Source: a virus
Virus record (IMG/VR): IMGVR_UViG_3300010033_000003
Span: 1-37,744 of that record
Strand: one strand, 5' to 3'
Length of the DNA: 37,744 nt
Part shown: positions 1 to 37,744 of the stretch, piece by piece
Position numbering within the stretch: the stretch's first letter is position 1
Layout: every line of letters starts with the position of its first letter
Notes under the pieces: model-generated
What the model was told of the DNA's origin: nothing
Databases searched by the model: none
The model's input: the letters and a program-made list of their open reading frames with translations, nothing else
Translations under genes and position numbers: made by a program

Positions 1-123
1 ATAATTCTAAAACTGTTATTAAAACTCTACGTATGTTAGGTGATGTTGCCGCAGGTGATCAACACAGATTGGATGCTTTAACTTTAGCTTTTGCACAATC
101 ACAAGCTGCGGGAAGATTATTAG
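1..123. repeat. Terminal direct repeat, identical to 37622-37744 (circular-closure overlap)
   Basis: ATAATTCTAAAACTGTTATT...GCGGGAAGATTATTAG is read at both window ends. Joining them keeps the tape measure ORF in frame. Confidence 0.9.
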
Positions 124-2798: not shown

Positions 2799-3139
2799 TG
2801 TCGATACAACACGGGGATATAGTTTTAAATAGCGACAGTGAAATTCAAGCTGTAAACGGCGATTTAGTTACGGGTAATGCAATAGAGCAACATGTCGGCG
2901 CAATTGTGAACGCTCACGTTGGTAATTTTAGAAGATATCCAACACTAGGCGCAAACTTAGACCTTGATCAAGATTCACCGTTAAACTCGCGCCAAATCGC
3001 TTCAAAAGTAACAAACGCTTTAAATCTTGACGGTTGGGTTGTGGATCAATTATTCATAGATCAAGTGAATCAAGAAGAAATAAGAGTCACTATTGGAGAA
3101 GCTAGAAAAGTTACGGATGAAACTCAAAGTTTGATATAA
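2798..3139 (+). CDS. Baseplate wedge protein (gpW / gp25-like)
   Basis: 113 aa, the same size as P2 gpW. IEQHVGAIVNAHVGNFRRYPTLGANL resembles the gpW I.Q.IG.IL....G.R....YG..L segment. ATGA-type overlap with the upstream gene. Confidence 0.45.
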   Translation: MSIQHGDIVLNSDSEIQAVNGDLVTGNAIEQHVGAIVNAHVGNFRRYPTLGANLDLDQDSPLNSRQIASKVTNALNLDGWVVDQLFIDQVNQEEIRVTIGEARKVTDETQSLI

Positions 3140-3450
3140 TGGCAAATTTTACAGTAATAAAAGTTCAAAGTTTAATGGATGTGTGTCTTCAAGTTTACGG
3201 CACATCGCAATTATTGTTTAGGTTAGCCAGTGACAATAATTTATCCATTGACTCAGATATAAGAATAGGTCAAGTTTTAACCTTCGACGAGAATTTAGGA
3301 AATCTTAGAATTAAAAATAAAACAAATAATCAACGATTGGATTACGTTAACCCAGTGCCAGAAAATAGACCAAATGTAGAATACTGGACGGATTCATTTG
3401 GTACAATTTTTACGGATGGTTTAGGAAATCCATGGATTGCAAATACATAA
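3139..3450 (+). CDS. LysM-like tail protein (P2 gpX-like)
   Basis: FTVIKVQSLMDVCLQVYGTSQLLFRLASDNNLSIDSDIRIGQVLTF follows the LysM pattern. Confidence 0.5.
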   Translation: MANFTVIKVQSLMDVCLQVYGTSQLLFRLASDNNLSIDSDIRIGQVLTFDENLGNLRIKNKTNNQRLDYVNPVPENRPNVEYWTDSFGTIFTDGLGNPWIANT

Positions 3451-6194: not shown

Positions 6195-6529
6195 TGGAAA
6201 ATTGGTTTTCCCAAAATATAGGTAAAATTATTACTGCTTTTATGACTGTTGTTTTATTTGCAGGTAGTTTAATTGGCTATATTTATACGCAAGATAAAAA
6301 CGAAAATGCTATAGAGAGGCAGAAAATATATGAAGTTCTTGAAAAGCAAAATTTACTTATTCAAAAGGAGGTAAAGGAACGAAAAAGAGAGGATGAGAAA
6401 TTGAATTCTCTTATTAATATGAAATTAGATCTTCGTGAATTTAATCAATTTGAAAAGCGTTTTGAAAGTATGCAACGAACTACGGAAGAAACAAACCGTG
6501 ATGTGAAACAAATTTTAAAGAAATTTTAA
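6194..6529 (+). CDS. Single-pass membrane protein with a charged coiled C-terminus (holin/antiholin/spanin-like)
   Basis: The start MENWF overlaps the upstream stop (TAATG). Transmembrane segment IGKIITAFMTVVLFAGSLIGYIY, then a K/E-rich tail. Confidence 0.5.
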   Translation: MENWFSQNIGKIITAFMTVVLFAGSLIGYIYTQDKNENAIERQKIYEVLEKQNLLIQKEVKERKREDEKLNSLINMKLDLREFNQFEKRFESMQRTTEETNRDVKQILKKF

Positions 6530-6531
6530 AT

Positions 6532-6924
6532 ATGAGTGTATCAAACGCACAATGGGAATTTTTACAAGATGTTGCAAAGCTTATTGAGTATGCCAAAGTT
6601 TTAGGTTTAAAGCTCACAGGAGGACATTTGTGGCGTTCTGACGCTCAGCAGCTACTTTTCTACTACGGGAAAGATATCGTCGCTAAAAACGGCGAATTAG
6701 AGTTTGTGAAAGCTCCAAAAAGGTCCTGGACTTTAAACAGTGATCATAAACGAAAATTAGCGATTGATTTCAACTTTTTCGATGATGGAAAATATTTGTC
6801 CAAGCCTCAAGAAAATTCAAAAGTGATCAAACTTGCTAGATTTTGGGAAGGTTTGAACTCTAAAAATTATTGGGGTGGTTTCTGGAAGACGCCAGACGCA
6901 CCGCATTTCGGTAGAAAACTTTGA
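6532..6924 (+). CDS. Endolysin, M15 (VanY / L-Ala-D-Glu peptidase-like) metallopeptidase
   Basis: WRSDAQQ, SDHKRKLAIDF (H-x6-D) and WGGFWKTPDAPHF match the zinc-ligand motifs of Peptidase_M15-type phage lysins. Confidence 0.8.
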   Translation: MSVSNAQWEFLQDVAKLIEYAKVLGLKLTGGHLWRSDAQQLLFYYGKDIVAKNGELEFVKAPKRSWTLNSDHKRKLAIDFNFFDDGKYLSKPQENSKVIKLARFWEGLNSKNYWGGFWKTPDAPHFGRKL

Positions 6925-6927
6925 ATT

Positions 6928-7164
6928 ATGGAAACTATTTCGTATATTGTTGCTTTCGGCTTCGGTGTTGCATTGGGTTCGTTTCTATCTTATAAGTTTC
7001 GCAAACCTACAACAGTTAACGAGTACAACGGTACAGTTAAAAATAAAGTTCGCGGAAAAGGAAACGTTCAAAACATCGATCAAAAATTCGAAATTACGCC
7101 GTCAATGTCAAACAAAGAAATTAGACAAACGGTGAGAGATTGTAAACGACAGAGAAGCAATTAA
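6928..7164 (+). CDS. Small single-pass membrane protein (lysis accessory)
   Basis: ISYIVAFGFGVALGSFLSYKF transmembrane segment followed by a basic tail, directly after the endolysin. Confidence 0.5.
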   Translation: METISYIVAFGFGVALGSFLSYKFRKPTTVNEYNGTVKNKVRGKGNVQNIDQKFEITPSMSNKEIRQTVRDCKRQRSN

Positions 7165-7197
7165 TCTGTCAAGTTTTTAATTTTAAATTTTAACAGC

Positions 7198-7545
7198 ATG
7201 AAAAAGCTAGTATTATTTTTATTATTTTTTGGGCTATTTAGCGTTGCTTCATTTGCCCTTAGTGTTGAACCTGTACAACAAGCCGTAGAAGTTGAAAAAA
7301 CTTCATGGATCGTTGAAAACATTGGTTTTTTGACCTCTGGTTTATTCGCATTGTTAACTACTGTATTCGGTAGCAAATTTGCGTTTGTAAGAAAGAAATT
7401 TTTACAATTAATAGATTTGTTGCAGGAGGTGGAAAACGCAACTAAAGACGACAAGATTACCAAAGAGGAAATGAAAAGAATCGTTAATAAAGCAAAAATT
7501 CTTTTAGGTAAGAAGTTGGACGAGGATATAAGCAAAAAAAAGTAG
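7198..7545 (+). CDS. Signal-peptide/membrane protein (spanin-like candidate)
   Basis: MKKLVLFLLFFGLFSVASFA N-terminus, a second hydrophobic segment IGFLTSGLFALLTTVFG and a charged C-terminus. Confidence 0.5.
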   Translation: MKKLVLFLLFFGLFSVASFALSVEPVQQAVEVEKTSWIVENIGFLTSGLFALLTTVFGSKFAFVRKKFLQLIDLLQEVENATKDDKITKEEMKRIVNKAKILLGKKLDEDISKKK

Positions 7546-7549
7546 AGGA

Positions 7550-7759
7550 CTAATCCCCTACTATCAATACTTTAAGCCCTAAAGGCTTTAAAATTTTATT
7601 AACCCTTTCGATACTGTTTGAAAGGGTTTTTTCTTTGTGTTTGTAAGACTGCTCTGCAATTCCTAAAGCTTCACAGTACTTTTTTTTCGTTTTAAACTTC
7701 TTTTTAATTCGAAGTCTAAAGAGCTCCATAGCTCCGATTCTTGCTTCTCCTTCTTTCAT
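7550..7759 (-). CDS. Small XRE/Cro-like HTH protein (69 aa)
   Basis: KKKYCEALGIAEQSYKHKEKTLSNSIERVNKILKPLGL fits an XRE helix-turn-helix. ATGA overlap with the upstream acidic ORF. Confidence 0.6.
   Translation of the reverse strand: MKEGEARIGAMELFRLRIKKKFKTKKKYCEALGIAEQSYKHKEKTLSNSIERVNKILKPLGLKVLIVGD
7601..7636 (+). terminator. Rho-independent terminator of the late/lysis operon
   Basis: AACCCTTTC-N10-GAAAGGGTT is a perfect 9-bp stem followed by TTTTTCTTT. It lies inside the 3' end of the convergent HTH gene. Confidence 0.6.
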
Positions 7760-8046
7760 GATAAATCATCTATTAGTTGAACAATTTCTGTTAAAGTATC
7801 ACACAAGCAAACTGCATCCGCTGAATTACTATCTTGATCGATACATTCACAGGCGTTTGCGGTTATAAATATTTTATCCAATAAATGCTCTGTTAAATCA
7901 GATTCATCTATTTTATCTATCATAGATACTATTTTTTTTAAAGTATCTTCACAATCCTTTGCCTCTTCTGTTTCAAAAGATCCCAATTGTGGCACATCAT
8001 TAGCCTTTTCTCTAATTTCCTGAATTACATCTTTTATATGTCTCAT
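7756..8046 (-). CDS. Highly acidic 96-aa protein, unknown function
   Basis: Start MRHIKD at 8046, downstream of the promoter. 24 D/E versus 9 K/R, and 5 Cys. The track start at 8082 would sit inside the promoter. Confidence 0.6.
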   Translation of the reverse strand: MRHIKDVIQEIREKANDVPQLGSFETEEAKDCEDTLKKIVSMIDKIDESDLTEHLLDKIFITANACECIDQDSNSADAVCLCDTLTEIVQLIDDLS

Positions 8047-8053
8047 AATATTT

Positions 8054-8064
8054 AAATTTGATTC
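8054..8064. repeat. Left arm of an 11-bp inverted repeat (AAATTTGATTC)
   Basis: Perfect reverse complement of 8156-8166. Each arm lies in the 5' leader of one of the two divergent transcripts. Confidence 0.7.
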
Positions 8065-8068
8065 TATA

Positions 8069-8100
8069 CAAAGATAAAACAAAAAAATTAAAAAAACAAA
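8069..8100 (-). promoter_or_regulatory. Leftward Bacteroidota-type promoter
   Basis: On the minus strand: TTTG-N20-TATCTTTG (TAnnTTTG), about 22 nt upstream of the ATG at 8046. Confidence 0.6.
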
Positions 8101-8120
8101 TAAAAAAAGTTTATAAATTA

Positions 8121-8151
8121 TTTGGTGGTAAATAAAAAAGTATTACATTTG
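8121..8151 (+). promoter_or_regulatory. Rightward Bacteroidota-type promoter for the replication module
   Basis: TTTG (8121-8124), a 19-nt spacer, then TACATTTG (8144-8151). Confidence 0.65.
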
Positions 8152-8155
8152 TAGT

Positions 8156-8166
8156 GAATCAAATTT
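8156..8166. repeat. Right arm of the 11-bp inverted repeat (GAATCAAATTT)
   Basis: Perfect reverse complement of 8054-8064. Confidence 0.7.
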
Positions 8167-8177
8167 TTATTTTAATT

Positions 8178-8750
8178 ATGAAAGCAAATATTCAAAAACA
8201 AAACGACTTTTTACCTACAGGTTACAGAGTACCTGACAAGAAAGACCAGTTCATGAAACTTTCAGTTGGTGAAAATAATGTTCGAGTTTTATCAACTCCT
8301 ATTATGGGTTATGTAGTTTTCAATGAAGACAAGCAGCCTATTCGTAGAAACATGGAAGCAGGAGACTTCACAAATGAAGATCTTGAAAAATTAAGAGCAA
8401 AACGTGGTGAAGACGGAAAATTTGAAGGCTCTCGTCACTTTTGGTTAATGCTTGTTTGGGATTACAACACCAATACACCTAAAATTCTTGAGGTGAAGCA
8501 AGTTTCTATTTTGAAAGCAATGTACGCGCTTTTCAACAATGAAAAATGGGGTGATCCTCGTAGTTATGATATCAATATCAATCGCGAGGGAACAGGTAAA
8601 ACAGATACTAAATTTACCGTAACTCCTGAACCACCTAGTGAACCTGCAAAGAGTATTATTCAAACTCTTGAGCAAATCGAGAAAAAGCAGCTTTGTCGAT
8701 TAGAAGCTATTTGGGAAAACGAGTATCCATTTGAACTTTATAATTTTTAA
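8178..8750 (+). CDS. Putative ssDNA-binding protein
   Basis: ATG at 8178; the track start at 8154 is GTG inside the leader. First gene of the replication operon, next to an exonuclease. The acidic/aromatic C-terminal tail ENEYPFELYNF is typical of SSB tails. No firm family motif. Confidence 0.4.
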   Translation: MKANIQKQNDFLPTGYRVPDKKDQFMKLSVGENNVRVLSTPIMGYVVFNEDKQPIRRNMEAGDFTNEDLEKLRAKRGEDGKFEGSRHFWLMLVWDYNTNTPKILEVKQVSILKAMYALFNNEKWGDPRSYDININREGTGKTDTKFTVTPEPPSEPAKSIIQTLEQIEKKQLCRLEAIWENEYPFELYNF

Positions 8751-8753
8751 ACT

Positions 8754-9974
8754 ATGAACCAATTTTTAAAAAACGCACAAGCCTTCGATATGGAGGCTGT
8801 GCTTAACGCAGAAGAGGCAAAAGTAGAATCTTTTAATTCTACACTTGAGTACACAAGACCTTTGGGAGAATATCCAACAGTTAGTGAAATTGTTAATTTC
8901 TTACAAAATAGAAAACGCAATATTCACGTTTACACGGACGATATTAGATCAAATGGTATTGTTGTACAGGACGACATGAGAAAGTACCTAGAATCTCCTA
9001 ATTTGAGCTCTGGGACTATCAAGAAGGCATTAAATACAATGCTACATTATGAATTTGAAAAAAATTGCCGTAAAAAGCTTGAAGCTTTACAAGGTGAAAA
9101 AGATCATTTCAAATTGGGTACTTACCTTCATGAATGTGTACTTGAACCTACTAAATTTTCGCGTGTAATTGTTGAACCGAAAGCTTCACGAGCAAACAAT
9201 AGTGATTTAGATATGCTTTGTGATTTTTGGGAAGAAACTATACGTGATAAAGGTGAAGTTTTTCCAGAAGGTTCAGCGCCAATACAAGCAGAAGAAGCGA
9301 TCGAAAAAGCTTACAAAGATACTGTTAAAGATATCGACAAGCGCGACGGAAAGAAAGAATACTTGAATAACTTGATTCAAATTTCTGGTTTACGCGTTGT
9401 AAGTGAAGATATGAAAATGATTATCGATATCGCTCATTCAAATTACATGCGTTACGGTAATGGTATTCTTCCTGAATTGTTGAAACATTCAAAGCGTGAA
9501 ATTTCAATGTACGTGAAAGATGAAGAAACAGGTCTTGACGTTAAAATTCGACCTGATGCCATCCAATTCGCTGAAAACATTGGTGTAGATGCTATCATTT
9601 CGGTAAAAACTACATCATGCGAAACACTTGGACACTTTTACTATCATTCAGCAAAGTTGAATTATGAAACAAGTGAAGGAATGTATCAAGAGGTAGCTAG
9701 TAAAGCAACTGGTAGAGATTTTGCCACTACTTTAATGATCATGATTCAAACTGTTCCTCCTTATGGAGTAGCTTTGTTGAAATGGAATCCCGAAGATATA
9801 GAGATAGGGAAACATAAATATCGCCACGCTTTACAATCTATCGCAGATGCGGACTTTTCAAAAGTTGTACCTAGTTTCGATATGTACGCTGAACAAGGTC
9901 ACTTTGGAATCATTGAAATGAAGCAACCTGACTGGAACAAAAAGAACATTCACCCAGTAGACGTAAACGATTAA
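8754..9974 (+). CDS. PD-(D/E)XK (RecB/Cas4-like) exonuclease
   Basis: GTYLHECVLEP, then IRPDAI...VDAIISVKTT (D...D/ExK), then a tyrosine-rich tail segment SAKLNYETSEGMYQEV. Confidence 0.6.
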   Translation: MNQFLKNAQAFDMEAVLNAEEAKVESFNSTLEYTRPLGEYPTVSEIVNFLQNRKRNIHVYTDDIRSNGIVVQDDMRKYLESPNLSSGTIKKALNTMLHYEFEKNCRKKLEALQGEKDHFKLGTYLHECVLEPTKFSRVIVEPKASRANNSDLDMLCDFWEETIRDKGEVFPEGSAPIQAEEAIEKAYKDTVKDIDKRDGKKEYLNNLIQISGLRVVSEDMKMIIDIAHSNYMRYGNGILPELLKHSKREISMYVKDEETGLDVKIRPDAIQFAENIGVDAIISVKTTSCETLGHFYYHSAKLNYETSEGMYQEVASKATGRDFATTLMIMIQTVPPYGVALLKWNPEDIEIGKHKYRHALQSIADADFSKVVPSFDMYAEQGHFGIIEMKQPDWNKKNIHPVDVND

Positions 9975-9978
9975 TCAT

Positions 9979-10004
9979 AGCCCCTTTATTGGGGCTTTAT
10001 TTTA
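9979..10004 (+). terminator. Rho-independent terminator
   Basis: AGCCCC-TTTATT-GGGGCT followed by TTATTTT. Confidence 0.7.
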
Positions 10005-10690: not shown

Positions 10691-10909
10691 ATGCCTAAAA
10701 GAATTAAAAAAGGTGAAGTACCTAAAAACGATTTAATAGCAAAATCAGCACTAGCAAAAAAATTAGGAATTAGTCCTGTAGCTATTCAGAATAGAGTTAA
10801 TAGAGGAACTTTGCACATTTACAAGGAAATTCCTGGTATCGAATTAATTTACGTTGAAAATCTTCATGATTGGATTCAAGAACAGATTAAAATCAAAAAC
10901 AATGGCTAA
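10691..10909 (+). CDS. Small HTH DNA-binding protein
   Basis: LAKKLGISPVAIQNRVNRGTL helix-turn-helix. Confidence 0.55.
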   Translation: MPKRIKKGEVPKNDLIAKSALAKKLGISPVAIQNRVNRGTLHIYKEIPGIELIYVENLHDWIQEQIKIKNNG

Positions 10910-14127: not shown

Positions 14128-14158
14128 TTTGCATTTATAAGGATAATTTGTATATTTG
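14128..14158 (+). promoter_or_regulatory. Consensus Bacteroidota-type promoter, 5 nt after the terL stop
   Basis: TTTG (14128-14131), a 19-nt spacer, then TATATTTG (14151-14158). Confidence 0.65.
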
Positions 14159-14335: not shown

Positions 14336-14409
14336 AGTCCATTGGCTCAGTTGGTTAGAGTACTAGGTTGTCAGCCTAGGGATCACGGGTTCGAGTCCCG
14401 TATGGACTG
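14336..14409 (+). tRNA. tRNA-Asp (anticodon GTC)
   Basis: Folded by hand. Acceptor AGTCCAT/ATGGACT; D arm GCTC/GAGT; anticodon arm CTAGG-TTGTCAG-CCTAG with GTC at 14370-14372; 5-nt variable loop; T arm ACGGG-TTCGAGT-CCCGT; discriminator G. CCA is not encoded. Confidence 0.9.
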
Positions 14410-14411
14410 CT

Positions 14412-15355: not shown

Positions 15356-15709
15356 ATGAGAGATGTTATAAAGAATATAATAAAGAAAAAAATTTCTGAG
15401 CTAGAAGAAAAAGGTAGAAAATGCATTTTGCCGTTAGAGATGAAATTTCCTATAAAATTCAACAATAAAGAATATGAACTGACAATTCCTTTTAAGGGTA
15501 AGAATAACAAAAAACCAAAAATTTTGGAAATAATCAAATACAAAGGAATTAAAGGTTGTGTTATTTATTCAAAAGAAGATGAAATATTTCACGGTAAAAT
15601 ACTAGATACAAGACATCTTTTTTTATATGAAGGCAAAACCAGAGAAGAATTAAAAAAGAATTTTGAAGATATGGTCTTAATGTTCATTGAAGACAAAATA
15701 AAAGACTAA
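15356..15709 (+). CDS. HicB-family antitoxin-like protein, with an N-terminal extension and no DNA-binding tail
   Basis: YKGIKGCVIYSKEDEIFHGKILDTRHLFLYEGKTREELKKNFEDMVLMFIED matches the HicB-family signature YKGY.G.V....ED..FHG.I......I.FEG.T..EL...F...VD.YL. No HicA-like ORF is nearby. Confidence 0.65.
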   Translation: MRDVIKNIIKKKISELEEKGRKCILPLEMKFPIKFNNKEYELTIPFKGKNNKKPKILEIIKYKGIKGCVIYSKEDEIFHGKILDTRHLFLYEGKTREELKKNFEDMVLMFIEDKIKD

Positions 15710-16603: not shown

Positions 16604-17329
16604 TTACTTGATCCATGCTTGTTTTGCTTGTACTAAAGCTTCTAAAGTACTAACATCTTTATATTCTTTAATTGTAAAGATAAGTTCCCTTATAATCTCA
16701 ACAGCTAGATCACTTTTTAAGATCTCTAATATAATCTTATTTTCCTCTTGGTTAACTATTTCTAGCTTTAATCTGTGAGCTTCTTCGGTTTTACCTTCTG
16801 CATAAAGTCTACCAAGTTTTTCATATTTTTCAGAATTAAGTCTAGAAAAAGTTTTTTTAACAACATCCTTATTAGACACTTCTTCATTAGATGTAAAATC
16901 AAGTACTTCTTTAATAGGATAATTCTTACAGATATAAGAGGCTAATCTTATTTGCCTCATTGTTGATATTTTTTTAAACATTTTATTAATAGTTCCATCA
17001 CTTAGATTATGAATTCTTTCAATAGATGCTGGGTTATGACCAAGAGGTGATAATACATATGAAAGATTAAATCTCATTTTTGATAACTGTTTTTCCGAAT
17101 AATCTTCTATAGTTCTGTTGTTAAATTCAGGATCAAGCTCGTCATTTATATACTGAACTATGACGAATCTACTTAAAGACCCAATTTCATAATCTTCATT
17201 AATGTATCTACTAACAAGAGTACTGCTTAAACCAATTTTTTTACTTACAGAAACTAAAGTTTCATTACCAATCTTTGCTCTTAATAGCTTTGAAATTTCG
17301 TCTTTCGACATTTTGTAGCTTGCTTTCAT
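16604..17329 (-). CDS. Putative transcriptional regulator with two HTH-like segments (241 aa)
   Basis: LVSVSKKIGLSSTLVSRYIN, and a second segment IERIHNLSDGTINKMFKK. Last gene of the leftward block. Confidence 0.5.
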   Translation of the reverse strand: MKASYKMSKDEISKLLRAKIGNETLVSVSKKIGLSSTLVSRYINEDYEIGSLSRFVIVQYINDELDPEFNNRTIEDYSEKQLSKMRFNLSYVLSPLGHNPASIERIHNLSDGTINKMFKKISTMRQIRLASYICKNYPIKEVLDFTSNEEVSNKDVVKKTFSRLNSEKYEKLGRLYAEGKTEEAHRLKLEIVNQEENKIILEILKSDLAVEIIRELIFTIKEYKDVSTLEALVQAKQAWIK

Positions 17330-17355
17330 GTTTTTATTTTTAAAATTATTAATAT

Positions 17356-17736
17356 TTATTTTTTACTTCTCTTAGGTTGAAATGCCATTTGTTCTTTCCA
17401 CCAGTCTTCTGTACTTTGTTCAGGTATTTCCTTTTTCTTACTCTTATTATACCCAATAAAGACTTGTTTCTCACACTTGACATACACTTTTGATTTTTCA
17501 CCTGCAATAATACAAGTAACAATAACATCAGGATTTTCAACTTCTTTCAATGTGGCTTCAATTTTTACTTTTTCTCCGTAAAATCTAGCCTCCCAAATAT
17601 GTTTTCTTTTACTCTCTTGTTCAACTGCAAGTAAATAGTTTGTTCTATCACTCAAAAAGAAATAAGCCGCTCTAATTGGTTCACTTTCGCAAACGTTCCA
17701 CTTGTCTATTGTTCTAAATCTTAATATTTTTTTCAT
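17356..17736 (-). CDS. Hypothetical early protein (126 aa)
   Basis: Clean ORF downstream of the promoter at 17760-17791. Confidence 0.6.
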   Translation of the reverse strand: MKKILRFRTIDKWNVCESEPIRAAYFFLSDRTNYLLAVEQESKRKHIWEARFYGEKVKIEATLKEVENPDVIVTCIIAGEKSKVYVKCEKQVFIGYNKSKKKEIPEQSTEDWWKEQMAFQPKRSKK

Positions 17737-17759
17737 GATGTATGAATTTGATTACACCA

Positions 17760-17791
17760 CTAATATAGAAACAATATTTAAAAAAATCAAA
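17760..17791 (-). promoter_or_regulatory. Early promoter (family member)
   Basis: Minus strand: TTTG-N20-TATATTAG, then the leader TGGTGTAATCAAATT. Confidence 0.5.
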
Positions 17792-17823
17792 CAAAAATGT
17801 TTATAAATATCGAGGAAAGTAAG

Positions 17824-17858
17824 CAAAAAATAATACCGTCATTATTAGTGACGGTATT
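17824..17858 (-). terminator. Rho-independent terminator (leftward)
   Basis: 10-bp stem AATACCGTCA/TGACGGTATT with a 7-nt loop, followed on the minus strand by TTTTTTG. Confidence 0.65.
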
Positions 17859-17879
17859 GGTTGTGTTTGGCGGTTAAAA

Positions 17880-18011
17880 TTAATCTTCTAAATATCTCAC
17901 TGAATGGTTTAAATTCTTACACATCTTCTTGTGATCATTAAAATTGTAAGGGAGTGGTATGTATCTTTTGCAATATGGACATACTCTGTAATTGTTTCTT
18001 TTTGGCTTCAT
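17880..18011 (-). CDS. Candidate 43-aa zinc-ribbon-like ORF
   Basis: MKPKRNNYRVCPYCKRYIPLPYNFNDHKKMCKNLNHSVRYLED (CxxC...HxxxC). Absent from the track. It fills the gap between YopX and the terminator. Confidence 0.4.
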   Translation of the reverse strand: MKPKRNNYRVCPYCKRYIPLPYNFNDHKKMCKNLNHSVRYLED

Positions 18012-18023
18012 ATGTTTTTTATG

Positions 18024-18431
18024 CTATGCCTTTCGGCGGTTGTTTATAAAATCGTAAATATCTCCAATTATTTTGTAATTAAATTTATGATATTCATGAA
18101 GCGAAATATATTTAGGAAGACGACCTCTACCTTTAATTCTTTTCAACACAATAGAACCTTCATGCCAACACACTACTCTAATTACTTCTTTGTCTGTTCC
18201 GTAATTGTTAGAACACACATCACCAATAAATACTTTTTCTCCAAACATTTCGTATCCTGTATATTGACAAACTGTATTCGGATCTACTTCTATTCCTGTG
18301 TAAAATCCAGTAGGGGTAATAATGTGTTTGCCTGTCTCAAAAATCCTACAATTAATTCCTGAATCAATAATAGATCCGTATAGCCATTCGTTATGACTAG
18401 CCCTTCGTGCTTTGAATAATATTTCTTTCAT
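18024..18431 (-). CDS. YopX-family protein
   Basis: Overall pattern MKEILFKARR...EWLYG...CQYTG...D..GKEIF.GD plus the C-terminal IIGDIYD, typical of YopX. Confidence 0.6.
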   Translation of the reverse strand: MKEILFKARRASHNEWLYGSIIDSGINCRIFETGKHIITPTGFYTGIEVDPNTVCQYTGYEMFGEKVFIGDVCSNNYGTDKEVIRVVCWHEGSIVLKRIKGRGRLPKYISLHEYHKFNYKIIGDIYDFINNRRKA

Positions 18432-18498
18432 TTTATTTGTTTTTAGTTAGACATGTTGTAAATATACAAAACTATTTATATATATCGAGGAAAATAAA

Positions 18499-18536
18499 CA
18501 AAAAAGCTGATATCGATTTAACGACATCAGCTTTTA
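18499..18536 (-). terminator. Rho-independent terminator (leftward)
   Basis: AGCTGAT.TCG-N6-CGA.ATCAGCT with one mismatch. There is a T tract on the minus strand. Confidence 0.6.
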
Positions 18537-18552
18537 AATAGGTTTTTAAGCT

Positions 18553-19005
18553 TTACGCTTTACACATCGGCTTTGATGGACGTATTTTTTTGCCTTCATG
18601 ATCAAGATTGAATAGTTTGTGATACCACTTTCTTGAACGTTCTTTATTCCAACTGTTACGCAAAGTACTACAATTGTCTACTAGACGCGAGTTTTGTTCC
18701 TCTAGCTTTGCTTTTTCATCTTGTAGATAATCGACAAGAGTTTTAGATTCCTTTTTGTGCTTGTCAAAAGCTTCCTTTATCTCTTGTACCTTTATAGAAT
18801 CTTTTTGAGTTTTCTCTATTAAAAACTTGTTGTCAACTTCTAGCTGAGTTTTTTTGTCCGATAGATCATTAAAGTTCTTTTGTAGTGACTTATGCCACGC
18901 TTCAAGATTGTTGTATTTTTCTTGAAGAATCTCGTTAGACTTTTCAATATTCTGAGCTACTTTAATAACGTGAGCTTTTGTTTTGCAATTTTCAAATTTT
19001 GACAT
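18553..19005 (-). CDS. Coiled-coil early protein (150 aa)
   Basis: Heptad-rich K/E/L/Q sequence with a basic C-terminus. Confidence 0.6.
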   Translation of the reverse strand: MSKFENCKTKAHVIKVAQNIEKSNEILQEKYNNLEAWHKSLQKNFNDLSDKKTQLEVDNKFLIEKTQKDSIKVQEIKEAFDKHKKESKTLVDYLQDEKAKLEEQNSRLVDNCSTLRNSWNKERSRKWYHKLFNLDHEGKKIRPSKPMCKA

Positions 19006-19049
19006 TGTAATTATTTATTTAATTAGACATTGGTGAAATGAATCACCGA

Positions 19050-19271
19050 TTAAGATAATTTTAAATGATTGAAGGTTTCGCAATGCTTTTTTGCATCCTC
19101 AAGATCATTGAAAAAAAGATTCTCTTCTCTTGAATCGAAACGCGTATAATCTTTAGCGTGATTAGCTGTAAGATAATACATATCTTTTCTAGCGCTGTAA
19201 AATATACGGAATAAAACGTTTTTACTTTTACCTTCGAAATGGGATAACCCAATAGATTTAAATCTGATCAT
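19050..19271 (-). CDS. Hypothetical early protein (73 aa)
   Basis: The start MIRFK at 19271 overlaps the upstream stop (ATGA). Confidence 0.55.
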   Translation of the reverse strand: MIRFKSIGLSHFEGKSKNVLFRIFYSARKDMYYLTANHAKDYTRFDSREENLFFNDLEDAKKHCETFNHLKLS

Positions 19272-19447
19272 AGTTTTACATTGTTTTTGTACCAATCTTC
19301 AAATTGGTCCATATTTGATTCATAAAAAAGGCATTTTGAACACGGGATATCAAAACAATTATCGTTATTGGCTAAACAATACGCTCTTTGTATCATATCT
19401 ATTTCGTGCTTTTTGCCTGGATATTTCAAACTTTTATACTTATGCAT
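19268..19447 (-). CDS. Candidate 59-aa Cys-rich ORF
   Basis: MHKYKSLKYPGKKHEIDMIQRAYCLANNDNCFDIPCSKCLFYESNMDQFEDWYKNNVKL. Directly downstream of promoter 19471-19502. Absent from the track. Confidence 0.45.
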   Translation of the reverse strand: MHKYKSLKYPGKKHEIDMIQRAYCLANNDNCFDIPCSKCLFYESNMDQFEDWYKNNVKL

Positions 19448-19470
19448 ATCAAACGTTTTTGATTACACTG

Positions 19471-19502
19471 CTAATGTATACACAATATATGTAAAAAGCA
19501 AA
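19471..19502 (-). promoter_or_regulatory. Early promoter (family member)
   Basis: Minus strand: TTTG-N20-TACATTAG, then the leader CAGTGTAATCAAAAA. Confidence 0.5.
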
Positions 19503-19511
19503 TAAAATTAT

Positions 19512-19541
19512 AAAAAAAACACCCCTATCGAAATAGAGGTG
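19512..19541 (-). terminator. Rho-independent terminator (leftward)
   Basis: Minus strand: CACCTCTAT-TTCG-ATAGGGGTG followed by T8. Confidence 0.65.
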
Positions 19542-19548
19542 ATTTAAT

Positions 19549-19863
19549 TTAAACTTTCCAGTCTTCAAAGACTTCTTCTTTTTGTGGTGTTTCGTCGAAA
19601 GGTCTTAATACTTCAACATAGATTTCCCGCATTTTAAGCGGCTTATTTTTATAACTATGTTTAAACTGAACCATATCGATAACACCAGTGAAGGGGCAAA
19701 GTAAAACGTTATTGTATGAATGTTTTCCGTTAACAATTACATTGCATCGGTAAATAGTTTTTTCACCGTTGTATTTGTAATTTGGGCTAAATGATACTAC
19801 CAAGCCCGTTTGATCTGTTCTTTCGTCTTCTGGTAGTTGAAAACGGTCGTTATCGCTACTCAT
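19549..19863 (-). CDS. Hypothetical early protein (104 aa)
   Basis: The start MSSDNDR at 19863 overlaps the upstream stop by 1 nt. Confidence 0.55.
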   Translation of the reverse strand: MSSDNDRFQLPEDERTDQTGLVVSFSPNYKYNGEKTIYRCNVIVNGKHSYNNVLLCPFTGVIDMVQFKHSYKNKPLKMREIYVEVLRPFDETPQKEEVFEDWKV

Positions 19864-20084
19864 TAGAATAAGTGAATTATAAGACAACCTATTGCGGCAC
19901 AACCTCCAATTATTATAGCTGCAAGGGCTATAGGATCCATTTTTTTCGCACTAACTCTACACATTCTTATAATTGAATTGTGAGCTTTCACGGTGTCCTT
20001 GATTAATTTCTTATCGTAGCGGTTTAGCTTGTAGTTTTCCTTCTCTTGAAGGATGCTTTCTACTTGTTGTATTGTCTTGTTCAT
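19863..20084 (-). CDS. Small tail-anchored membrane protein (73 aa)
   Basis: C-terminal hydrophobic segment IALAAIIIGGCAAIGCLIIHLF. Confidence 0.55.
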   Translation of the reverse strand: MNKTIQQVESILQEKENYKLNRYDKKLIKDTVKAHNSIIRMCRVSAKKMDPIALAAIIIGGCAAIGCLIIHLF

Positions 20085-20632
20085 TACACTAGGTCTTTAA
20101 GAATTGAATTTGGTTTATTAATTGGTGCAAATGCAAAATCGATTGTGAAGCCGTTTTCATCTGCTACTTGACGACCGAAAATATTTCCAATATGCTCAGC
20201 GCAAAAGAAAACTTCATAGGTTAAAAAGGCTGCTGAGCCTTTTGGGTTTGACACCTTACAAACTGCAAACTTTCTCAAGTAGTCTTTGTTTGGAGAATGT
20301 ACACCTTGTTGTTTGCATATTTCAACAATAATTTTTTGCAAACTCATTAAGATTTTTTCGTCCAAATCTTCAATTGTGTTTTTAATACTAGGTAATTGAC
20401 CTTTTGACAGATGATAATTGTAAACTTTTTCAATTTCTTTTCTCACTGCTGAAGGTCGGTTTGATTTTCTATTCAAAACAAGATTCATTTCTTCCTCTAA
20501 TTTTTCAAGTGACCAATCATGTACTTCATCTGTGTTACTGTGTTTTGGTCTTTTAGTTGGAAAATTTTGAAATTCAAGATCTTTAAGCTTTTTAAATTCA
20601 AAATTAATTTCGTTGTTTTCATTTACTACCAT
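20084..20632 (-). CDS. Hypothetical early protein (182 aa)
   Basis: Clean ORF with overlapping start and stop junctions on both sides. Confidence 0.6.
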   Translation of the reverse strand: MVVNENNEINFEFKKLKDLEFQNFPTKRPKHSNTDEVHDWSLEKLEEEMNLVLNRKSNRPSAVRKEIEKVYNYHLSKGQLPSIKNTIEDLDEKILMSLQKIIVEICKQQGVHSPNKDYLRKFAVCKVSNPKGSAAFLTYEVFFCAEHIGNIFGRQVADENGFTIDFAFAPINKPNSILKDLV

Positions 20633-21099
20633 ACTTTAATCCTCCTTTTAGCTAATCGGTTAAAAAATTCATAGTTGTATCCTGCATCCTTTACCCATGC
20701 TTTTAGGCGGTGCATGAATGCAGTTTTGTTAAGCTTTGGAAATAGATTGCAATACTCTTCGTAAACGTCTTTAACCAAAACTTTAACGTTTTTAACGTTT
20801 TCGAATACATTTTCAAAGAAAATCATTTCTTTATTTACTAGCAACAATTGTTCGTATTGCTCTTTAGTAATTGGATCAATTGAATGTATTCCTTCGGTAA
20901 CTTCGTTGATATCCACTAAAGGACGTACACCTTTTTGATCAGACATAGCCTTTTGACAGGTGTTTTTAATACTCCACTTGATAGTTTCAATATCATAGTA
21001 TTTTCCTGTATCAAGGGAAATGATTCTACTTTTAAAATAGTTAGAACCTGCATACTGCTTTGACGCAATATCTTTTACTTTGTCTACAATCGTAATCAT
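20626..21099 (-). CDS. Hypothetical early protein (157 aa), first gene of the leftward block
   Basis: Clean ORF downstream of promoter 21129-21159. Confidence 0.6.
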   Translation of the reverse strand: MITIVDKVKDIASKQYAGSNYFKSRIISLDTGKYYDIETIKWSIKNTCQKAMSDQKGVRPLVDINEVTEGIHSIDPITKEQYEQLLLVNKEMIFFENVFENVKNVKVLVKDVYEEYCNLFPKLNKTAFMHRLKAWVKDAGYNYEFFNRLAKRRIKVW

Positions 21100-37312: not shown

Positions 37313-37744
37313 TTAGGCTTAGGGATCGAGTAACGAAACAAGCCCAAAGAATGCAAAAGTCAATTAATAGAACTGAAAGAAGCGCTAAAAGGTTGGGCAA
37401 TACTTTGGATTTTGTTGGGAGAATTTCCGCGGCTGTTGCTGTTGGAGGAATTTTTAAATTTGGTGCTGAACTAGAGCAAGCAAAATTAAAATTTAATACT
37501 TTGACTGGATCTGTTGAAAAAGGTACAAAATTATTTAATGATCTACGAGACTTTGCAAACACTACACCTTTTCAAGATAATAGATTACAGAAAAATGCAT
37601 CTACTCTACTAGCTTTCGGAAATAATTCTAAAACTGTTATTAAAACTCTACGTATGTTAGGTGATGTTGCCGCAGGTGATCAACACAGATTGGATGCTTT
37701 AACTTTAGCTTTTGCACAATCACAAGCTGCGGGAAGATTATTAG
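37291..37744 (+). CDS. Tail tape measure protein, N-terminal part. The full ORF is 37291..37621 joined to 1..1163, 497 aa.
   Basis: ATG at 37291 with GGAGGA 8 nt upstream, open to the window end. It carries the ...LRMLGDVAAGDQHRLDALTLAFAQSQAAGRL tape-measure core motif and follows the sheath, tube and chaperone genes. Confidence 0.8.
   Translation, partial: MAQTTYIIRLRDRVTKQAQRMQKSINRTERSAKRLGNTLDFVGRISAAVAVGGIFKFGAELEQAKLKFNTLTGSVEKGTKLFNDLRDFANTTPFQDNRLQKNASTLLAFGNNSKTVIKTLRMLGDVAAGDQHRLDALTLAFAQSQAAGRLL
37622..37744. repeat. Second copy of the terminal direct repeat (equals 1-123)
   Basis: Exact 123-nt identity with the window start. Confidence 0.9.

Follow-up and report, generated by a model that had tools for sequence, protein, structure and literature searches.

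The adjacent genes orf96 and orf69 lie on the minus strand of a 37,744-nucleotide viral DNA (IMG/VR record IMGVR_UViG_3300010033_000003, positions 1 to 37,744; the whole of this stretch is called the window below) and form a discrete two-gene unit in the genome of what is probably a virulent Flavobacteriales myophage. The promoter of the unit contains a 23-nucleotide (nt) module that recurs in mirror image in the promoter of the divergent recombination and replication operon, and this promoter duplication is the most solid new finding of our work. We favor the hypothesis, with a probability of roughly 0.35, that the unit is an immediate-early accessory cassette made up of a host-directed acidic inhibitor (orf96) and a small basic autoregulator (orf69). 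A preliminary description of this DNA had proposed an operon resembling those of anti-CRISPR (acr) and anti-CRISPR-associated (aca) genes. That description was accurate, whereas the functional label attached to it is unproven. The unit is a candidate for anti-defense screening; its function is not demonstrated, and phage genomes commonly encode acidic early proteins that are orphans.

Anatomy of the two-gene unit

The unit consists of the following parts.

7756-8046, minus strand: orf96, the first gene, encoding 96 amino acids (aa)
7550-7759, minus strand: orf69, the second gene, encoding 69 aa (or 59 aa from ATG 7729)
7534-7562, minus strand: predicted intrinsic terminator (hairpin 7562-7541), whose stem of 9 bp overlaps the stop codon of orf69 and precedes T7

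As had been described, the TGA that ends orf96 overlaps the start codon of orf69 in the sequence ATGA. However, orf69 may start at ATG 7729, giving a product of 59 aa and a gap of 26 nt past the orf96 stop codon, because its sole homologue begins at the equivalent of Met11. For both open reading frames (ORFs) the codon-usage log-odds are positive in the annotated frame alone, and gene calling on a second assembly of the phage, from ENA, gave identical 96-aa and 69-aa products. Spurious ORFs were rejected because long ORFs are rare at 31% GC and the codon usage is specific to the frame. A TTG start of orf96 at 8082, which would yield 108 aa, was rejected: it lies between the two elements of the leftward promoter, 5' of any start site that they set, and the promoter fits ATG 8046, with a transcription start site about 15 to 20 nt before it.

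Terminator-like sites number 2 against 0.3 expected, and the hairpin at the end of the operon has a folding energy of -21.5 kcal/mol (z = -2.7). With its own host-type promoter and terminator the pair is a discrete unit, in agreement with the earlier claim of a two-gene operon. The definition that we applied for a short-gene operon of the acr-aca kind calls for products under 200 aa, gaps under 250 bp and location in a mobile element; the unit encodes 96 and 69 aa on one strand, with an overlap or a gap of at most 26 nt, in a complete phage. Among the 53 predicted proteins of the phage, orf96 ranks as the most acidic and orf69 as the most basic, and their adjacency would arise by chance with a probability of about 2/52.

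The coding region of orf69 also contains a plus-strand hairpin (7601-7638) with a perfect 9-bp stem and a subsequent T-run. It resembles a terminator of the convergent late (tail and lysis) operon, which ends at 7545. If it serves as such, about 90 to 100 nt at the 3' end of orf69 would also be transcribed in antisense, as part of the late transcripts.

Two mirror-image promoters with a common module

The intergenic region between orf96 and the gene for an SSB-like protein comprises 131 bp with 13% GC and has two divergent promoters.

8069-8100, minus strand: leftward promoter, -33 TTTG (8100-8097), N20, -7 TATCTTTG (8076-8069)
8121-8151, plus strand: rightward promoter, TTTG (8121-8124), N19, TACATTTG (8144-8151)
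8054-8076, minus strand: copy TATCTTTGTATAGAATCAAATTT of the 23-nt module, covering the -7 box and start-site region; candidate operator
8144-8166, plus strand: mirror copy TACATTTGTAGTGAATCAAATTT of the module, belonging to the rightward promoter
8047-8058, no strand assigned: 12-mer AATATTTAAATT in the orf96 leader, which holds the palindrome ATTTAAAT and has a single exact copy in the window
8178-8750, plus strand: SSB-like gene, first of the divergent early recombination/replication operon, whose promoter module is in common with the orf96 unit

The sigma-A consensus of Bacteroidota reportedly consists of a -33 TTTG and a -7 TAnnTTTG separated by a spacer of about 19 to 20 nt, and the orf96 promoter conforms to it. 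The host-type promoter of the form TTTG-N20-box that had been noted on the minus strand is indeed present at 8100-8069. The rightward promoter precedes the genes for the SSB-like protein, the exonuclease and NinG. Taken alone, matches to the generic pattern TTTG-N17-21-TAnnTTTG are no rarity: five were found against 2.6 expected, and 13 of 100 shuffles reached five. Two of the five stand back to back within the 131-bp region. Of the 23-nt pattern TAnnTTTGTAnnGAATCAAATTT, on the other hand, the window contains exactly two copies where 0.12 are expected; none of 100 shuffles reached two, and the copies form the long inverted repeat I1. No other intergenic TAnnTTTGTA promoter (14151, plus strand; 18465, minus strand; 21194, plus strand) has the extension GAATCAAATTT. 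The module common to both promoters suggests that the cassette on the left and the recombination/replication operon on the right are built for joint expression and possibly for joint control.

The preliminary description had noted that anti-CRISPR promoters have an inverted repeat in the leader; here the candidates for such an operator are weak. The local dyads in this DNA of 13% GC are composed of A and T only, namely, the 8-bp palindrome ATTTAAAT and the imperfect 18-bp repeat I11, and neither makes a convincing operator. A scan of IMG/VR for TTTGTAnnGAATCAAATTT returned nine single matches, none of them in the register of a TAnnTTTG -7 box and none paired, which we took as unrelated.

orf96 is an acidic orphan protein

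orf96 contains 14 aspartates and 10 glutamates (25% of its residues), 7 lysines, 2 arginines and 5 cysteines, which gives a net charge of -15 and an isoelectric point (pI) of 4.15. The earlier figures of 24 acidic residues, 5 cysteines and a charge of about -15 are therefore all confirmed. It is the most acidic of the 53 proteins, at -0.156 charges per residue against -0.080 for the next. Cysteine makes up 5.2% of the protein compared to 0.86% of the proteome, a sixfold enrichment, and the residues are arranged as C32, C66xC68 and C80xC82. In aspartate codons, orf96 uses GAT in 14 of 14 cases; the long genes of the genome have 277 GAT and 67 GAC.

By sequence, orf96 is a strict orphan. An exhaustive phmmer search of 1.84e9 cluster representatives and a word-indexed search of 5.8e9 clusters recovered only the protein itself, tblastn against GenBank phages gave only noise, and there was no match in IMG/VR, PDB sequences, Pfam, PHROGs, NCBIfam or PADLOC. 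The AlphaFold model, computed from the single sequence, is a bundle of four to five helices with a predicted local distance difference test (pLDDT) score of 69 and a predicted template modeling (pTM) score of 0.52, and is weakest at residues 61 to 80. With this model, Foldseek found designed helical bundles and the like in PDB (best E = 0.5) and, as the best match in BFVD, an unnamed 94-aa viral protein (E = 0.26). The C66xC68-x11-C80xC82 arrangement (7849-7801) sits in the part of the model with the lowest confidence, and the cysteine pattern could represent a metal site that single-sequence prediction is unable to fold. A possible internal duplication (DTLKKIVSMIDKI / DTLTEIVQLIDDL) was rejected as marginal, because 32 to 41 of 2,000 shuffles reached its score.

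The preliminary description had likened orf96 to DNA mimics and proposed to compare the surface charge of its predicted fold with that of mimics such as Ocr, ArdA and AcrIIA4; no match to Ocr, ArdA or an Acr emerged in sequence or predicted fold. The resemblance is one of composition and position. A content of about 25% aspartate plus glutamate and a pI of about 4 are in the range of T7 Ocr, ArdA, T4 Arn, Ugi and AcrIIA4, which are likewise proteins of about 90 to 170 aa, and orf96 would, like them, be a first early gene, if its timing is as its promoter suggests. Unlike them, orf96 shows no similarity to a known mimic in sequence or predicted fold (no Foldseek match in PDB or BFVD below E = 0.26), and its five cysteines, including CxC-x11-CxC, are foreign to those proteins.

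A small, helical and acidic protein that comes first in an early unit would also suit a takeover of transcription, in which orf96 binds the host sigma factor or RNA polymerase in the manner of AsiA or Gp2, with orf69 as a cofactor, and shifts transcription from the -33/-7 early promoters to later ones. Two candidate later promoters, at 18465 (minus strand) and 21194 (plus strand), keep the -7 TAnnTTTG and lack a well-spaced -33 TTTG, in contrast to the three -33/-7 promoters at 8069-8100, 8121-8151 and 14128-14158. However, searches of PDB by sequence and by fold gave no similarity to AsiA, Gp2 or other RNA polymerase binders, and the two promoter classes are drawn from five sites by sequence only. 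We consider this role quite unlikely.

orf69 is a basic protein outside the known regulator families

orf69 has a net charge of +10 and a pI of 10 and is the most basic protein of the phage. It had been described as an XRE-type helix-turn-helix (HTH) protein, an assignment that our searches do not support. There is no match in Pfam even at E<=10, and none in NCBIfam, PHROG or PADLOC; PDB sequences, queried with the single sequence or with a two-sequence profile, yielded no HTH or other match. With hhalign, the comparison to the N-terminal HTH domains of five related repressors gave a probability of 4%, and of 1.4% with the two-sequence profile. The AlphaFold model (pLDDT 80) consists of two long helices (residues 3 to 21 and 25 to 60) that form a two-helix hairpin. 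orf69 differs from XRE/Cro regulators in having neither an HTH_3 match nor their compact domain of about five helices. In Foldseek, the model retrieved from PDB generic helical bundles only (E>=0.26), none of them informative.

We also improvised an HTH scoring matrix based on 17 motifs of classical HTH proteins, which serves as a source of leads and not as a test. In orf69 it picks the expected segment, KKKYCEALGIAEQSYKHKEK, at 4.1 bits, a score reached by 118 of 5,000 shuffles, compared to 18 to 22 bits for the HTHs of related loci; a loose HTH pattern fits YCEALGIAEQSY, also with 4.1 bits on this matrix. The best HTH-like segment in the genome is KSALAKKLGISPVAIQNRVN in a 72-aa ORF (10691-10909, plus strand; 18.5 bits), followed by LVSVSKKIGLSSTLVSRYIN in a 241-aa ORF (16604-17329, minus strand; 8.4 bits), and these two ORFs are more likely than orf69 to encode the classical DNA-binding regulators of the phage. 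A nine-gene minus-strand block (16604-21099), almost all of whose members are orphans, ends with the 241-aa ORF.

The word-indexed search of the 5.8e9 clusters returned orf69 itself only, and tblastn against GenBank phages returned noise. The exhaustive phmmer search was run with orf96 as the query, and the orphan status of orf69 is based on these weaker searches. A single homologue was found, a 58-aa ORF at 2998-3174 of IMGVR_UViG_3300033565_000049 (L026), with 41 to 44% identity over residues 11 to 69 of orf69. The motifs KKKFK, Y..A.GI and N.ILKPLGLK[IV].I are conserved between the two proteins. The homologue is again a second gene, 8 nt behind an unrelated 64-aa ORF with a net charge of -2, so that partnership with an acidic protein is not conserved in the orf69 family. 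It lies just 3' of a short tyrosine-recombinase gene and is followed by two small overlapping ORFs, a RadC-like JAB protein and an N6 DNA methylase. The stretch between the recombinase and the RadC/methylase genes (L026 2176-5209), with its small overlapping ORFs, looks like an accessory or anti-restriction-type island. The 12-mer AATATTTAAATT is also present 5' of the operon of the homologue (L026 2725-2736); 8 of 300 shuffles give an exact match of 12 nt. Two metagenome scans for orf69 returned no family member, a scan of IMG/VR with back-translated ILKPLGLK[VI] gave 22 matches of which only the known contig was real, and further scans for members beyond L026 found none.

The preliminary description had predicted a regulator gene that is found beside diverse small genes. 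The single homologue goes in the predicted direction: the gene of an Aca-like regulator would be expected to stay conserved while the small cargo genes in front of it vary, within an accessory island. This is one case, however, and the family has only two members; the HTH part of the prediction failed.

Could the unit then be an acr-aca operon in the strict sense, with orf96 as the inhibitor of a host CRISPR-Cas effector, for example, of type II-C or VI-B, and orf69 as an Aca that represses the acr promoter? Both types of CRISPR system are common in Bacteroidota. The layout that had suggested such an operon is real, with one short operon on one strand, a strong predicted early promoter, a small acidic gene first and a small basic one second, both encoding fewer than 200 aa. 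AcrIF1-Aca1 and AcrIF8-Aca2 share this order, in which a small, sometimes very acidic and poorly conserved protein precedes a small regulator, and their regulator families recur behind different small genes, as the orf69 family may, going by its two known settings. Moreover, some Aca proteins regulate in both directions (PMC12282945). The protein families tell against it. All characterized Aca families of the HTH type match the corresponding clan of Pfam (CL0123), and such a match with hmmscan E<1e-3 is what AcaFinder demands (PMC9765179); Aca14 is recognizable as RHH rather than HTH (PMC13551039). orf69, in contrast, matches no HTH-clan or RHH model, in Pfam at E<=10, and no Aca structure in PDB, and orf96 matches no Acr in the 1.84e9 representatives or PDB, which should include the published Acr families. 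Instead of a clear inverted-repeat operator, there is one copy of the 23-nt module in each of the mirror-image promoters. The CRISPR link of the pair is conjectural. As an Aca of the HTH clan and an Acr homologue were the testable features of this explanation and neither was found, we regard it as a rather improbable special case of the cassette that we favor.

The order of an acidic and then a basic gene, the overlap of stop and start codons and the small sizes also resemble type II toxin-antitoxin operons, and the pair could be a toxin-antitoxin-like, abortive or addiction system in which the upstream acidic protein neutralizes the downstream basic one. Neither protein matches a toxin or antitoxin family in Pfam, NCBIfam or PADLOC, the phage has no recognizable lysogeny functions, and the orf69 homologue sits in a longer array of small genes. 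Such a system is very improbable here.

Related loci have predicted repressors and non-homologous acidic proteins at or near this position

The upstream DNA was read for 11 related loci. At the equivalent divergent promoter region, the minus-strand gene scores as a repressor in 5 of the 11.

L001, L002 and L007, minus strand: HTH-S24 or Peptidase_S24
L008 and L011, minus strand: HTH_3

Four more loci (L005, L010, L023 and L024) have a minus-strand gene without a family match in the same position, and L006 and L009 gave no repressor call. At least two of the relatives (L005 and L010) encode an integrase. The position of the repressors indicates that the orf96-orf69 unit occupies the immunity-gene slot of temperate relatives. 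A phmmer search with orf96 and orf69 against all ORFs of the 11 loci found nothing.

Several relatives encode acidic proteins at or near the start of the rightward genes.

L023, 4119-4409: acidic first rightward gene, 96 aa, net charge -16, pI 4.15
L010, 4438-4746: acidic first rightward gene, 102 aa, net charge -16
L024, 3086-3694: acidic first rightward gene, 202 aa, net charge -24
L007, 2356-2670: acidic protein a few genes further in, 104 aa, net charge -18, eight cysteines

L023, L010 and L024 are prophages with a common recombination module, in which the acidic gene adjoins the repressor-position gene. The acidic proteins of the four relatives have pI values of about 4.1 to 4.4 and no detectable homology to one another or to orf96. 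Mutual homology of those of L023, L024 and L010 was considered and rejected (BLASTP E = 12 and 4.7). Three of the four have no Pfam match, and the L007 protein has only a sub-threshold match to the DnaJ Cys-rich domain. In the three prophages the first early slot is filled by proteins that are comparably acidic but not homologous (about 100 aa long in two cases, 202 aa in the third), which suggests that it recurrently holds exchangeable acidic proteins. This is as expected of host-directed inhibitors under diversifying pressure and is the best support, albeit indirect, for the idea of the preliminary description.

The same loci bring up a different role, that of a regulatory pair in a former immunity slot. 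orf69 would be a Cro-like early repressor and orf96 its acidic partner or antagonist, titrating it by DNA mimicry as in SinI/SinR or CarS/CarA. The repressors at the equivalent position in 5 of 11 loci and the minus-strand genes without family match in 4 more are consistent with this, as is the lack of any other CI-type repressor, S24 domain or integrase among the scanned ORFs of the complete genome. Opposite charge extremes encoded by adjacent, closely coupled genes would suit proteins that bind in fixed proportion, and the module common to both early promoters is what a Cro-type operator would look like. The arrangement indeed recalls the lambdoid cI/cro immunity region: the minus-strand unit lies directly 5' of the recombination genes and diverges from the early rightward operon over a short AT-rich region of paired promoters, where related Flavobacteriales prophages hold a repressor or repressor-position gene. 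It departs from it in that there is no HTH-S24 repressor, integrase or three-operator array, lysogeny functions being apparently absent, and in that the putative regulator comes second, behind an acidic protein. In addition, orf69 has no supported HTH, the 72-aa and 241-aa ORFs (10691-10909 and 16604-17329) are the stronger HTH candidates in the window, and the partner of the orf69 homologue is not acidic (net -2). We see this pair as possible, though doubtful; the alternative given in the preliminary description, a Cro-like switch gene accompanied by a passenger ORF, is likewise possible.

A hypothetical cassette of inhibitor and autoregulator

Under the hypothesis that we favor, that of an immediate-early cassette of an acidic inhibitor and a basic autoregulator, host RNA polymerase would fire both mirror-image sigma-A-type promoters upon infection. 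The rightward promoter would drive the recombination and replication genes, and the leftward one orf96, with orf69 expressed behind it through translational coupling or close spacing, until transcription stops at the hairpin 7562-7541. orf96, a small, predicted helical and cysteine-containing protein with a charge density equal to that of known DNA-mimic inhibitors, would most likely act on a nucleic-acid-binding target of the host, either a defense nuclease or another DNA-binding protein. The lysine-rich orf69 would bind nucleic acid and exert feedback on its own cassette, perhaps also on the early promoter opposite, via the start-site sequences (GAATCAAATTT and/or the ATTTAAAT dyad). What the data show is the anatomy of the unit, its coding signal, the duplicated promoter, the charge extremes, the orphan status and the one orf69 homologue with another upstream partner; we infer that the unit is early, that orf96 mimics DNA and acts on such a target, and that orf69 binds DNA and regulates its own unit. 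It is common for Aca regulators to act on a neighboring or divergent operon besides their own (PMC13551039, PMC12282945).

A more specific form of this hypothesis is unlikely, namely, that orf96 represents a new DNA-mimic anti-defense family of marine Flavobacteriales phages, controlled by a two-member orf69 family outside the HTH clan that co-represses both early promoters at the start of transcription.

Several points weigh against the cassette hypothesis. orf69 is without a statistically supported DNA-binding motif, and its model is a helical hairpin. The 23-nt module may be merely a duplicated promoter with its 5' leader and not an operator, and the 12-mer in common with L026 is a weak lead of marginal significance (p ~0.03) in AT-rich DNA. 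Guilt by association draws on one homologue of orf69. As for orf96, no match to Ocr, ArdA or an Acr ties it to an inhibitor by homology or fold, its single-sequence model is of modest confidence (pLDDT 69), and small acidic early proteins serve many other roles. Finally, the host defense system or other target is conjectural.

To our knowledge, few or no anti-defense proteins have been characterized for phages of Bacteroidota. Should the unit be an anti-defense cassette, its inhibitor and its regulator family would both be additions that current Aca/Acr finders miss, because neither protein matches any profile. Irrespective of this, the mirror-image promoter pair with its identical start-site module provides a compact natural example for the study of early-promoter control in Bacteroidota phages.

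The phage genome and its host

An exact direct repeat of 123 bp is present at both ends of the window (1-123 = 37622-37744), and the ENA assembly represents the same phage in rotated form; together these indicate a complete genome of about 37.6 kb that is circular or terminally redundant. The genome, with a GC content of 31%, encodes a structural and lysis set (tail sheath, baseplate, portal, protease, capsid, terminase and M15 endolysin), a replication and recombination set (the SSB-like protein, a DUF3799/exonuclease VIII-like nuclease, NinG and a DnaC-like loader), one tRNA-Asp and one HicB-like protein. Relatives of the exonuclease (45 to 54% identity) and of the SSB-like protein (52 to 59%) come from Tenacibaculum, Crocinitomicaceae, Flavobacteriaceae and Sinomicrobium assemblies or from IMG/VR contigs. 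That the relatives of these neighboring genes come from Flavobacteriales supports a host of this order and agrees with the flavobacterial setting assumed from the outset. A megablast search of 6500-10000 against GenBank phages found nothing matching.

An Rfam scan of the window detected the tRNA alone. It is a tRNA-Asp(GTC) at 14336-14410 on the plus strand and lies behind a full -33/-7 promoter, TTTG-N19-TATATTTG (14128-14158). Further downstream, a 117-aa ORF (15356-15709, plus strand) matches a HicB-like antitoxin PHROG (E = 1e-9), with no recognizable HicA partner adjoining it.

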